DNA from: Candidatus Hodarchaeota archaeon
GTDB lineage: Archaea; Asgardarchaeota; Lokiarchaeia; Sigyniarchaeales; SOKP01
Direction: 5' to 3'
NCBI GenBank assembly: GCA_048887225.1
Contig: JBHLJY010000009.1
Location: 1-64,000, forward strand
Length of the DNA stretch: 64,000 nucleotides
Part shown: positions 33,368-36,804 of the stretch, piece after piece
Layout: each line of letters opens with the position of its first letter
Position numbering within the stretch: the stretch's first letter is position 1
Made by a program: the position numbers and the translations under genes
Notes under the pieces: model-generated
What the model was told of the DNA's origin: nothing
What the model saw: the letters and a program-made list of their open reading frames with translations, nothing else
Database searches by the model: none

Positions 33368-33634
33368 TTATGTGCTCATCAATCTAAACAAAAGTGAACT
33401 ATGAGGAATAAAAAATTCATCTTTACGCTTGATAACGACTGTATGAAAATATTCAGCCAATCCAAGGAATCCACGGATTACGCTCTCATCCTCCTCAAAT
33501 TTGAAGATCACATTCGCAATCGATGAGCCTGCGTTAAAAGTAACCTTCTCATATACTCTCTCGTCAATTAATGGGATTTTCAATTCATTAACTATTTCAT
33601 ATACTCTTTTAATGAAAAGTTCTTTCTTTGCCAT
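33368..33634 (-). CDS. Small hypothetical protein, divergent from the actin locus
   Basis: 88-aa ORF with GGTG RBS upstream and globular composition. Confidence 0.7.
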   Translation of the reverse strand: MAKKELFIKRVYEIVNELKIPLIDERVYEKVTFNAGSSIANVIFKFEEDESVIRGFLGLAEYFHTVVIKRKDEFFIPHSSLLFRLMST

Positions 33635-33945: not shown

Positions 33946-34611
33946 GTGGTGTCAGAGAAGAAGAAAATAAATCGTGTCATTAGTTTCTTGAAAAAAGGTT
34001 TATCAGGATTAGCTGATGAATTAGAAGGAACTGTTGAAGGAATCAACGAATTTATAAAATCCTTATCAAAAGCTCAGAAAGATCTTAAAGAAATACCCGC
34101 AGAAGGCGAAGTTCAAACAGTGAGTACATCATCTAAGAAAGTTGCTGCTACTCCTGGCGCGGCAAAAACTGCAGCCGCTAGTACTTTATTTACTTTATTA
34201 AGTGGTCCTTCTGAAGGTGAACAAGTAAGTCCAACTCCCACAGCTGCAGTTGCAGCTCCTAGTGATATGGCTAAACCATCAGGTGGTGGACCTCCAAAAG
34301 CTCCTTCAATTGGTGGACCTCCAAAGGCTCCAGCGAAAGCTAGTCCTCCTTCTCGCGGGAGTGATCTACCTCCTGCTCCTAAACTTCCTCCAGGTGCAGG
34401 AGGAGGTACTGGTCCGCCTAAAGCCCCTGCTGCATTTGGTGCTTATGCAAAAAGAGCTCCAGCCCCTGCGGGTGGTGGACCTCCAAGTGCCACTGGGATG
34501 CCATCAGCTCCGACTGCAACAACAGCTCAAGTAGGTGGGGGATTAGGTTCACTAAGGGATGAGATGTTAGAGGAACTAACTCGTTTAAAAAAGATAATGA
34601 GAGGAGAATAA
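33946..34611 (+). CDS. Coiled-coil / Pro-Gly-rich / WH2-like protein (candidate actin regulator)
   Basis: N-terminal heptad helix, GPPKAP x3 plus GGGPPSA and LPPAPKLPPG, C-terminal LRDEMLEELTRLKKI. Confidence 0.75.
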   Translation: MVSEKKKINRVISFLKKGLSGLADELEGTVEGINEFIKSLSKAQKDLKEIPAEGEVQTVSTSSKKVAATPGAAKTAAASTLFTLLSGPSEGEQVSPTPTAAVAAPSDMAKPSGGGPPKAPSIGGPPKAPAKASPPSRGSDLPPAPKLPPGAGGGTGPPKAPAAFGAYAKRAPAPAGGGPPSATGMPSAPTATTAQVGGGLGSLRDEMLEELTRLKKIMRGE

Positions 34612-34801
34612 AAACCATAAGATTATTATGATTTCTTTTTCTATATATTACCTCTAAATCAATAGAGTTATCGGTTTTCTCTTTTGATTTTTTTAAGTTA
34701 TAAGCAAATATATTAGGATAAAAAATTGTTTGTATAACATTAAAAAATAAAATTTAAGATATTTATAGAATTAATCAAACTGAATCATTTGATCTGATCA
34801 T

Positions 34802-35917
34802 ATGGGTAATCCTACTATTGTTTTGGACATTGGTCAATTTTCCACGAAAGGTGGTTTTGCAGGGGAAGATTATCCAAGTCAAGTGTTTTTTACTATAGTT
34901 GGGAAACCAAAATATCACGATCTTGAAGGACAGTACGGTGATCGTGAGCAAGAATTGTACGTTGGTGACGAGATTCAGTCTCTTGGATTATATAAAATAC
35001 ATTCACCTATTCAAAATGGAGCTATTGTTGATTGGAACTATTTTTCTAAAATTTTAGATTATATATTTTATAGTTTAAGAGTCGATCCCACTCTTGTTAA
35101 TGTGCTATTTGCCGTCCATCCATTGTTCCCTAAAAAAGATTTAAATAGGATTTTTGAACTATTCTTGGAACATTATCAATGTATGGCTTTTTATCCTGTA
35201 ATGGATTGTATGTTAACGCTATATTCAGGTGGATTTCAAACTGGTTTAGTTGTTGAAATTGGAGATAGTAGTACTAGAATTGTTCCTATTTATGAAGGAT
35301 TCAAATTAGATCACCCAATTAAAATTTTAGATATTGGAGGTAATGTTTTAACTCGACATTTGGAAATGCTAGTCGCATCAATAGGTTTTCCAGTTGATAC
35401 GTCGATAAGAAAGGATTTGGTAAGAGTATTAAAAGAAAAGGCGTGTTTTGTATCTTTAGATTATAATGAAGATCTTAAGAGAGCTGAACACTATTCGAAG
35501 CAATATTCTTTACCAGATGGATCAACAATTTCTCTTTCTAAGGAAAGATTCATGATTCCGGAAGTTTTATTTAAACCATCCTTAATAAACTTAGAGTTTT
35601 CTTCGCTACCAAGGGCCATCATGGAAGTCATCGATTTATGTGATTTAGATATCCGTTCTGATTTATTAAATAACATTTTTTTAACAGGAGGTTCTTCAAT
35701 GTTTCCTAATCTCAAATCTCGGATTTATAGCGAGCTAGAATTAGAATTAGCAAGACAGAAGAAAAAAAGTCAAGGGATAAGAATCATCGCGCCGAGGGAA
35801 AGAACTTTTTCAGTTTGGGTAGGAGGTTCAATTTTAGCAATGATTCCAGAATTTACTAAAAATTGGATAACGCGTTCGAAATATTTTAAAGAAGGAATCC
35901 CTGATAATCTATTATAA
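34802..35917 (+). CDS. Divergent Asgard actin / actin-related protein
   Basis: LDIG..TKGGFAGEDYP, YVGDE, IVDW, TGLVVEIGD, VPIYEG, LDIGG..LT, LKEKACFVSLD, YSLPDG, ERF..PEVLFKP, LTGGSSMFP, IAPRERTFSVWVGGSILA. Confidence 0.95.
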   Translation: MGNPTIVLDIGQFSTKGGFAGEDYPSQVFFTIVGKPKYHDLEGQYGDREQELYVGDEIQSLGLYKIHSPIQNGAIVDWNYFSKILDYIFYSLRVDPTLVNVLFAVHPLFPKKDLNRIFELFLEHYQCMAFYPVMDCMLTLYSGGFQTGLVVEIGDSSTRIVPIYEGFKLDHPIKILDIGGNVLTRHLEMLVASIGFPVDTSIRKDLVRVLKEKACFVSLDYNEDLKRAEHYSKQYSLPDGSTISLSKERFMIPEVLFKPSLINLEFSSLPRAIMEVIDLCDLDIRSDLLNNIFLTGGSSMFPNLKSRIYSELELELARQKKKSQGIRIIAPRERTFSVWVGGSILAMIPEFTKNWITRSKYFKEGIPDNLL

Positions 35918-36030: not shown

Positions 36031-36402
36031 TTGGAAAAACTTCCTGAAAATAATATTAATAAATCACCTCTCATGAAGAAATATTACAAGCCGAGTTATG
36101 CCTCAATGTTTAATAGAATCAAAAGTATAGACGCACCAGTAAAAAATGATTTAATTATTGCGTTATTGGATGGTAAATGGCATAGCGAAAAGGATTTAAT
36201 TAGATTAGCAAAAAAACAACAACATAATTATATAGGTCCTGTTTTACTCGGAACTATGATTAATTCATTAAATCATATGATTAAAAATAATTACGTCGAA
36301 AAACAGATTATAGATGGCGAAATGTATTATAAAATTTCTGATAATTACGTAGGTCTTACGAGAGCAGCTTATACTAAATACAACTTCAATGTAGAATTTT
36401 AA
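36031..36402 (+). CDS. Winged-helix-like protein, paralog A
   Basis: APVKNDLIIALLDGKWHSEKDL...YVEK..MYYKISDNYVGLTRAAYTK. Confidence 0.75.
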   Translation: MEKLPENNINKSPLMKKYYKPSYASMFNRIKSIDAPVKNDLIIALLDGKWHSEKDLIRLAKKQQHNYIGPVLLGTMINSLNHMIKNNYVEKQIIDGEMYYKISDNYVGLTRAAYTKYNFNVEF

Positions 36403-36438: not shown

Positions 36439-36804
36439 ATGGAACCCTTTGATGAAAAAAGATTTAATATGTCAACATTGATTAAAATTCAATTTAAACC
36501 TGAATATGCTAATATGTTTAAAAAAGTTAGGGATATAAGGGCTCCTATTAAAAATGAGATAGTTATGGCTCTCCTTGACGGTAAATGGCATTCTGAAAGA
36601 GAATTAATAACTTTCGCTAAAAAAAAATATAATTTTATTGGCCCTCTTACGTTGGATAGTATGGTTAATTCTTTAAATACAAACATAAATAATAATTTTT
36701 TAGAAAAGCGAATAGACAACGAAAGGACTTTTTATAAACTTTCTGATAATTATATCGGATTAACGAGGGCAGCATATACAAAATTTAGGTACATTATTAA
36801 GTAG
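36439..36804 (+). CDS. Winged-helix-like protein, paralog B
   Basis: APIKNEIVMALLDGKWHSEREL...FLEK..FYKLSDNYIGLTRAAYTK; AAGGTGTG RBS. Confidence 0.75.
   Translation: MEPFDEKRFNMSTLIKIQFKPEYANMFKKVRDIRAPIKNEIVMALLDGKWHSERELITFAKKKYNFIGPLTLDSMVNSLNTNINNNFLEKRIDNERTFYKLSDNYIGLTRAAYTKFRYIIK

Follow-up and report, generated by a model that had tools for sequence, protein, structure and literature searches.

A conserved terminal helix on proline-rich proteins of Asgard archaea: a candidate tether or adaptor family with a member beside an actin paralog

The FAM221 locus and its protein family

The stretch of DNA analysed here, referred to as the window, comprises 64,000 nucleotides of contig JBHLJY010000009.1 from an Asgard archaeon, Candidatus Hodarchaeota archaeon (assembly GCA_048887225.1). 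It is AT-rich (GC ~0.28-0.35) and encodes a protein of 221 residues, which we name FAM221, composed of a head helix, a Pro-rich arm and an end helix. A companion of 88 residues, here called UP88, is encoded on the opposite strand, and an actin paralog follows downstream. Asgard families are designated f, genera g, genomes G and loci L; f1 is the window's own family. The features of the locus, with structures predicted by AlphaFold2 (AF2) and local model confidence given as pLDDT (predicted local distance difference test), are as follows.

33946..34611, plus strand: FAM221 gene, 221 aa (open reading frame, ORF, from a GTG start; homologs; no Pfam family)
33949..34089, plus strand: long N-terminal amphipathic helix, residues 2-48 (AF2 pLDDT ~75-87; many invariant alignment positions)
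34165..34203, plus strand: short conserved hydrophobic motif KTAAASTLFTLLSG, residues 74-86 (alignment; low-confidence AF2 helix 74-85)
34204..34542, plus strand: disordered Pro/Ala/Gly arm with GPPKAP repeats and LPPAPKLPP (AF2 pLDDT <60)
34543..34608, plus strand: putative C-terminal docking helix LGSLRDEMLEELTRLKKIMRGE, residues 200-221, a candidate portable module (conservation; profile matches)
33368..33634, minus strand: UP88 gene, 88 aa, divergent from FAM221 (adjacency in at least 8 families, co-distribution, AF2)
34802..35917, plus strand: actin paralog, 371 aa (Pfam Actin 1.2e-86; a neighbour in f1, candidate partner only)

The FAM221 gene closes with a stop codon at 34609-34611. Gene callers elsewhere place the start one codon downstream of the first GTG, which yields 220 aa; homologs open with MVS, and the first GTG therefore fits as the start. 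The AF2 model, built on a 24-sequence alignment, contains a helix at 2-48, a weak helix at 74-85, disorder from 86 to 199 and an end helix at 200-218 (pLDDT 86-94), and the protein as a whole lacks a compact fold (predicted template-modelling score 0.19). The head helix is probably a coiled coil that serves assembly or partner binding; its matches to coiled-coil Pfam families are weak and sub-threshold. In the motif KTAAASTLFTLLSG, residues T80, L81, F82, L84, L85 and S86 are invariant in the family alignment, and deep lineages carry the versions LLFNMLSGG, DLWSLLTGK and DSLFDFLEGD. The arm holds three copies of GPPKAP (nt 34288, 34315 and 34411), LPPAPKLPP at 34366-34392 and GGGPPSA, and reads YAKRAP where homologs align FAKRP. 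The terminal helix is SLRDEMLEELTRLKKI, of which the segment SLRDEMLEELTRLKKIMRGE spans 34549-34608. An earlier note, written from these letters alone, had described a 221-aa ORF with an N-terminal helix, an Ala/Pro/Gly region bearing such repeats, a terminal helix at 34549-34608 and, 190 bp further along that strand, an actin gene; the ORF, the AF2 model and the Pfam match bear out each of these elements.

A search of 5.8 billion proteins (E<=0.01) returned 189 homologs of FAM221, 176-252 aa in length, the best 120 of which (E 1e-45 to 1e-127) were examined individually. The homologs are annotated as hypothetical throughout and derive throughout from Asgard metagenome-assembled genomes. FAM221 is not a chance ORF, because these 189 homologs exist and a profile search matches 160 of 400 Asgard genomes. 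By family, that search found it in 118/134 genomes of f1 and 14/14 of f3, a family that includes closed genomes of 4.3-6 Mb, and further in f4, f5, f19 and f27; the full-length profile gave no match at the threshold used in f13, f15, f16 and most of f31. FAM221 is a large, strongly conserved and undescribed family confined to Asgard archaea.

Four elements stand out in the alignment: the end helix, the head helix, the motif AKTAAASTLF.LLSG and, within the variable arm, LPPAPKLPP together with FAKRP. LPPxPKLPP is kept in 115 of the best 120 homologs. In the window's genome no other gene carries these motifs. Pfam searches with the whole protein, the head, the tail and 24 family members gave only sub-threshold coiled-coil families (DUF948, TMP_N and similar). 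An atlas search with FAM221 returned an unnamed Asgard cluster of its own kind as the top match, followed by two other unnamed Asgard clusters with scores <0.8. A search aimed at longer or fused relatives came back empty, which is weak evidence on this point; fused and transmembrane (TM) forms surfaced with the short profile of the end helix described below.

A portable end helix and a small companion

All of the best 120 homologs end in GGGL.SLRDEML.EL.RLKKIMRG, three to four residues before the stop. Across deep lineages the consensus becomes L[RK]xEM[LM]xE[LI]xR[LI]K[KESR][IL][MF], with L203, E206, M207, E210, R213 and K215 invariant in the helix alignment. On a hand-drawn helical wheel the invariant positions share one face and the variable residues lie at the back; a hydrophobic stripe runs between acidic residues at one edge and basic residues at the opposite edge. 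This face appears to be a one-sided docking surface, and the extreme conservation of the terminal motif fits a docking peptide. The invariant Met and the invariant charge pattern would suggest a specific pocket.

How far does this helix extend beyond FAM221? A 26-position profile of the end helix, applied to 201 Asgard genomes that are at least 85% complete (per-genome E<=1e-4), matches 168 of them, mostly once per genome. The matches include families without FAM221: f13 (20/21), f16 (15/15), f18 (5/5), f31 (43/55) and f9 (3/3). All eight loci inspected from FAM221-free lineages, and three more from genus g76, encode a protein with a TM segment, a coiled coil, a Pro-rich arm and the helix at the C-terminus. 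The proteins of these 11 loci are 288-570 aa long, carry at least one N-terminal TM segment and end in ...FAKSTSIAALRKEMLKELDRLKKFMSE or a close variant. The coiled coil of one of them weakly matches the CdvA-like coiled coil of Pfam (E 5.8e-4, below cut-off). Housekeeping genes surround the TM-form loci; PhoU, S25e, SAICAR synthase, LysRS, ribose-5-P isomerase and V-ATPase D are among the neighbours in deep-lineage and TM-form loci, and no functional hint emerges from the neighbours in either. Lineages with the soluble form have it exclusively and also possess UP88, which is missing from TM-form lineages, genus g76 excepted.

The helix is also found on other scaffolds. It lies internally in one family, whose C-terminal domain, CPxC...GIPCCxC, is multi-copy in f1. 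The window's own genome encodes such a protein of 201 aa (contig C20:6873-7475, plus strand, equivalent to L093:1874-2476), with the internal helix NIGSLREAMLVELERLRRLMNG just before the Zn-type CPxC...GIPCCxC domain. Relatives of this protein have a Ras/Roc GTPase at the N-terminus, together with a PPPPP linker (L095; L102 and L105 by eye), and the helix matches in this GTPase/Zn-domain family have genome-scale E values of 3e-5, 2e-4 and 1.6e-3. The opposite strand of the C20 locus carries, in this order, a gene for an HhH-domain protein, an unnamed ORF of 230 aa and a gene for a GTPase of the Gtr1/RagA type. A fourth scaffold consists of two globular paralogs of ~300 aa from one f4 genome (G279), which bear the helix at their C-termini (L112:1471-2541 and L113:1498-2439, both minus strand; ends ...SSLRDEMVRELNRLKEAL and ...SSMRDEMVRELTRLKQLL; no Pfam match). 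Judged by profile matches and architecture, the end helix appears to be a portable module used across the Asgard phylum on at least four scaffolds, mostly on membrane-anchored relatives.

UP88 is 75-90% identical within f1 and 33-67% across classes. It is present in 122/134 genomes of f1, 13/14 of f3, 3/4 of f4, 16/19 of f19 and 4/4 of f27, and a profile search found none in f13, f15 and f16; across genomes its distribution closely matches that of FAM221. In f6, f7, f21 and f26, all missed by the full-length FAM221 profile, a gene with a head helix, Pro-rich arm and end helix lies directly beside UP88, which brings the families with an adjacent pair to at least eight (f1, f5, f6, f7, f19, f21, f26 and f27), in divergent, convergent or tandem arrangement. 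The steady neighbour of FAM221 is UP88, not actin.

The AF2 model of UP88 has a pLDDT of 92. None of the fold searches matched it convincingly to a known fold: Foldseek found nothing in the PDB at E<=0.001, the VIA wide search gave a best Z of 4.5, and in the ESM Atlas the best matches, with TM-scores of 0.63-0.66 by the query, are to small parts of unnamed or DUF5305/UPF0182 proteins. A feature search retrieved only UP88's own cluster. Among 1.84 billion proteins UP88 accounts for 27 cluster representatives of 33-115 aa, none of which is a fusion.

A second UP88 copy (contig C1:382997-383251, plus strand, equivalent to L057:4992-5258; 143.7 bits against the UP88 profile) lies, by eye, between trpB/A/E/G-like genes and a peroxiredoxin-like gene, with no Pro-rich partner alongside, a setting that gives no clue to function. 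The window's UP88 opens with a clean ATG (MAKKELF). Many relatives have no ATG, GTG or TTG at the conserved start, and the frame opens with an ATT-encoded IPKRELF (L007, L010-L015, L017 and others); start-codon oddities occur also in G176, G183, G198 and G204. Other relatives contain one in-frame TAG or deviate in the first ~8 residues (L016, L021, L026).

The actin paralog and candidate partners of the end helix

Does the actin gene next to FAM221 identify the partner? Of the four actin-family genes in the window's genome, the canonical Lokiactin (contig C5:137638-138780, minus strand) scores 440 bits and the neighbour of FAM221 285 bits, and this paralog is 40% identical to the genome's Lokiactin. 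Orthologs of the paralog (48-96% identity) are limited to f1 and f3, and in other families its best match, at ~43-45%, is their canonical actin. The gene order in f1 is UP88 (minus strand), FAM221, actin paralog, and FAM221 precedes the paralog by ~0.2-2 kb, both genes being read in one direction; in the window, 190 bp separate the FAM221 stop from the actin ATG at 34802. The large genus g12 of f1 has a gene for a PIG-L family deacetylase between the two (L011:2303-3049, plus strand; Pfam 5.9e-24), which widens the gap to as much as ~2 kb. In the closed f3 genomes FAM221, UP88 and the paralog lie 10-270 kb from one another, and the FAM221 homolog sits between adenylosuccinate synthase and a large ORF that is uncharacterised. 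No actin gene is found near FAM221 in the f5, f19 and f27 loci. The actin paralog is a recent, family-level neighbour of FAM221 and not its defining partner. The adjacency on which the earlier note had built a pairing of FAM221 with its own actin is real in f1, but the paralog's orthologs stop at f1 and f3, g12 has the PIG-L insertion, and FAM221 and UP88 are far wider. Motif and gene order, for which the note had expected joint conservation, part company: the terminal helix is in all of the best 120 homologs, actin adjacency in f1 only.

Downstream of the actin paralog, the window contains two tandem paralogs of ~122 aa (36031-36402 and 36439-36804, plus strand) with no Pfam match. A single ~122-aa homolog follows the actin paralog in L001 and L049, so that this gene travels with the actin paralog and not with FAM221.

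The earlier note had gone further and proposed that the terminal helix is WH2-like, which would make FAM221 a candidate regulator of the WASP/WAVE/Ena-VASP type, resembling a nucleation-promoting factor and paired with its own actin or Arp. The likeness is apparent. RDEMLEEL..LKKI superficially resembles the RDALLDQIRQGIQLK type of WH2 sequence; coiled coil, Pro-rich arm and C-terminal motif together recall WAVE or VASP; and, as in WASP, WAVE, WIP and thymosin beta-4 (PF02205), an amphipathic helix that is short and closes with L-K-K-[I/V/T] occurs on many scaffolds with Pro-rich neighbours. WH2 motifs consist of a helix of about three turns and a linker of ~4-6 residues to LKK, 4-5 in thymosin beta-4, WASP and WIP. 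In FAM221, the spacer from L211 to L214, the Leu of LKK, is two residues, and AF2 predicts one continuous helix of ~5 turns through 200-218. LKKI is present in all of the best 120 homologs but is replaced in deep lineages, by RIKEIF in f19, RLKSIM in f5, f6 and f7 and RLKRLI in f9, and on the hand-drawn wheel the second Lys lies at the variable back. FAM221 ends in RGE*, three residues past the helix (three to four in the best 120 homologs), and has no C/A tail, the central and acidic, Trp-containing stretch with which WASP/WAVE factors engage Arp2/3.

Profile searches agree. Pfam WH2, EVH1 and VASP_tetra gave no match to FAM221 at E<=10; for WH2 (PF02205) this holds for the whole protein, its last 37 residues and 24 family members, although HMMER filters may drop very weak matches. 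Against PDB sequences, in a library without chains of <20 residues, the end-helix profile retrieved coiled coils exclusively and no WH2 or MIM entries; the end of the GCN4 zipper (EVARLKKLM, E 0.13) and M-protein coiled coils are among the best. Nor would the arm be an obvious profilin ligand. Ena/VASP proteins combine an EVH1 domain, profilin-type polyproline with runs of five or more Pro, and an EVH2 region with a tetramerisation coil; the longest Pro run of the FAM221 arm is two in 115 of the best 120 homologs. The VASP polyproline peptide is, moreover, not bound by Loki or Odin profilins (PMC8410842). Published WH2-like elements of Asgard archaea are limited to LKKT-like strands within gelsolins (PMC9433394; bioRxiv 2025.11.30.690169). 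The architecture and the conserved terminal helix of the earlier reading thus stand and its WH2 motif does not, while the note's own caveats, a short spacer, Pro runs of PP only and a missing acidic Trp tail, all hold. With every testable defining feature failing and the actin paralog limited to two families, we reject a WH2/WASP/WAVE/Ena-VASP relationship and consider a true WH2 nucleation-promoting factor that activates the adjacent actin or Arp very improbable. The picture of a WH2 protein next to its own actin derives from one family's gene order and a generic heptad pattern, which calls for caution.

In its broad form, the idea of the earlier note is one of actin binding. The end helix might insert into the hydrophobic groove that separates subdomains 1 and 3, either in Lokiactin or in the neighbouring paralog, in the manner of WH2 motifs, arcadin-2 and ParR. 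This would make FAM221 an actin regulator or a membrane/actin linker. An archaeal precedent exists in arcadin-2, encoded beside crenactin, whose conserved C-terminal helix behind an unstructured linker binds the hydrophobic groove of crenactin with a Kd of 31 nM (PMC5173319). The proximity of the genes in f1, and of UP88 and the paralog within ~10-20 kb in closed f3 genomes, is in keeping with this idea, and a helix that varies so little would suit a target that is itself highly conserved, Asgard actins being 69-91% identical across the phylum. Known Asgard actin regulators are essentially profilins and gelsolins, and the literature describes no free-standing groove-binding regulator in this group. 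However, the FAM221 family and its helix are far wider than the paralog, no actin gene adjoins FAM221 outside f1 in the loci inspected, and the WH2 features fail. The paralog's groove segments differ from those of Lokiactin (LYSGGFQTG vs LYASGRTTG; SILAMIPEFTKNW vs SILSSLKTFHRMW). Inspected by eye, the paralog departs from canonical actin at R147F, T148Q, T351E and M355N, positions at which Lokiactin keeps the canonical residues. In a co-immunoprecipitation of Lokiactin from L. ossiferum, the proteins named as enriched are confined to profilin, gelsolins and an Arf GTPase, the FAM221 homolog (L075:1210-2022, minus strand) not having been matched to the GNAMCCOK_ tags of the table (Supplementary Table 2 of bioRxiv 10.1101/2025.11.30.690169). 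Groove binding is unlikely on balance.

An extension of this idea is slightly less likely still: the end helix would be a general Asgard actin-docking peptide, through which the TM relatives tether Lokiactin filaments to the membrane and the soluble form with UP88, together with the GTPase/Zn-finger proteins, regulates actin or the Loki-specific paralog. If true, Asgard archaea would possess a groove-binding system, linked to small GTPases, that predates eukaryotes and resembles WH2 but was built independently.

Could the partner instead belong to the ESCRT machinery? The end helix may be a MIM1-like MIT-interacting motif that recruits FAM221 and its TM relatives to Vps4 or another MIT-domain protein for remodelling of the ESCRT type. 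The C-terminal helices of Asgard ESCRT-III proteins are reportedly Leu-rich and MIM1-like, and the same proteins reportedly have Pro motifs of the MIM2 kind (PMC7240154). The ESCRT-III tails of 10 Asgard lineages read [DE]LExE[IL]x[KR]L[KR], with the spacing of E-M-L-x-E-L-x-R-L-K in FAM221, that is, acidic-hydrophobic-x-x-E-hydrophobic-x-basic-L-basic. As in the MIM1 helices of the Vps2/24/46 class and of IST1, the helix is amphipathic and occupies the very C-terminus, preceded by a flexible linker that contains Pro. The pattern [ML]xxE[LI]xR[LI]K, made of invariant family residues only, occurs six times in the 8589 six-frame ORFs of the genome; two of the six are C-terminal, in FAM221 and in the ESCRT-III encoded beside Vps4. 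Set against the MIM1 consensus (D/E)xxLxxRLxxL(K/R), the spacing M207-L211-L214-K215 fits and Glu replaces Arg, as it does in Asgard ESCRT-III tails, with an insignificant profile score.

Potential receptors are available, as the genome has several MIT-domain ORFs. Besides Vps4, encoded on contig C14, long ORFs of 601-854 aa carry one to four MIT-like repeats, some above the Pfam cut-off, and some of these may be TPR-like false positives (Pfam MIT matches at contigs C14:16767-16949, C1:403310-403822, C2:241832-242818 and C1:44853-45011). The weak CdvA likeness of one TM-form coiled coil points in the same direction. In G117, a closed f21 genome, an UP88-like/Pro-rich pair lies ~10 kb from two ESCRT-III genes (contig C1:2271493-2286876), a single case that could be chance. 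Against this, the helix profile scores only 5.1 bits on the ESCRT-III tail (E 9.6, insignificant); ESCRT-III tails lack the features specific to the FAM221 module, namely its invariant Met, its SLR start and its K[IF]M end; and no lineage-by-lineage co-variation is seen between helix and tails. FAM221 also lacks the ESCRT-III core fold, its spacing is generic to charged helices of the heptad type, as the GCN4 and M-protein matches illustrate, and neither the window nor the eight TM-form loci offer an ESCRT gene context. We therefore treat an MIT-type partner as a tentative possibility.

The same coiled-coil matches in the PDB raise a further alternative, in which the helix is a short element akin to the VASP tetramerisation coil or a leucine zipper that oligomerises FAM221 or pairs helix-bearing proteins with one another, for example with the GTPase/Zn-finger family. 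The hydrophobic stripe between acidic and basic residues would suit such a role, and one genome carries the helix on several unrelated scaffolds. Yet the helix spans ~19 residues with a hydrophobic spacing of 4-4-3-4 rather than a regular 3-4 heptad, and its invariant Met and charge pattern speak for a specific pocket. Most genomes, moreover, have a single helix-bearing gene, so that homo-oligomerisation is the sole pairing option there, and the long N-terminal helix or coiled coil could already supply it. We regard pairing as doubtful.

A proposed tether or adaptor and its known counterparts

The reading that we prefer, at a probability of roughly 0.6, is that FAM221 forms the soluble branch of an undescribed family of Asgard tethers or adaptors, found throughout the phylum, whose end helix docks on a conserved cytoplasmic partner, with UP88 as its companion. 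The family's defining element would be the portable helix L-R-x-E-M-L-x-E-L-x-R-L-K at the tip of a flexible arm that is long and rich in Pro. At the other end of the protein, most Asgard lineages would have a TM segment and a coiled coil; Loki-type and several other lineages, including the window's genome, would have the 47-residue amphipathic helix instead and a gene paired with UP88. The head helix, probably together with UP88, may fix or oligomerise the protein at one site, the arm may provide flexible reach, and the end helix may dock through its conserved hydrophobic and charged face onto the partner. The distribution of soluble form, TM form and UP88 suggests that head helix and UP88 replaced membrane anchor and coiled coil. 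Among possible partners we place an MIT-type domain first, the hydrophobic groove of an actin-family protein second and pairing of helix-bearing proteins third, with the remaining probability given to others.

Several observations weigh against this tether or adaptor reading. The notion of a docking helix is drawn from a conservation pattern and a modular distribution, and the link to UP88 from gene order and co-occurrence. In f3, the FAM221 and UP88 genes are 3 to ~260 kb apart, and g76 has UP88 together with a TM-form relative. Homology between soluble and TM forms is limited to the end helix and the general architecture, and charged amphipathic helices easily resemble one another.

If the tether or adaptor reading holds, what would it mean? 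A helix-bearing protein is nearly universal in Asgard archaea, usually single-copy and undescribed, and combines a membrane or assembly head, a long Pro-rich reach and a near-invariant helix. It is a candidate for a missing connection from the membrane to a conserved machine of the cytoplasm, be it actin or ESCRT/Vps4. New here are the phylum-wide TM-anchored relatives, the additional scaffolds of the helix, the likeness to ESCRT-III tails and the differences in the groove of the paralog.

Tethers that combine a flexible linker with a terminal docking element are familiar from ZipA, from the C-terminal linker and peptide of FtsZ and from the C-terminal helix of ParR, which acts with ParM. In each, an anchor or assembly domain is followed by a long linker, disordered or rich in Pro, and then by a short terminal element, conserved in sequence, which contacts a cytoskeletal or hub protein. 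FAM221's TM-form relatives fit this plan, with no homology to those systems. Arcadin-2 of Pyrobaculum, a crenactin regulator, has a comparable plan: its N-terminal part is structured or coiled, an unstructured linker of variable sequence follows, the C-terminus is a small helix that is conserved, and an actin homolog is encoded next to it (PMC5173319). This likeness is one of architecture, a sequence relationship not being apparent: arcadin-2 uses a Trp in its helix and belongs to the arcade cluster of Thermoproteales, whereas FAM221 has a Pro-rich arm, adjoins actin in one family only and shares its helix with TM-anchored and other scaffolds. For the way in which such a helix might work, arcadin-2 nevertheless provides the best precedent.

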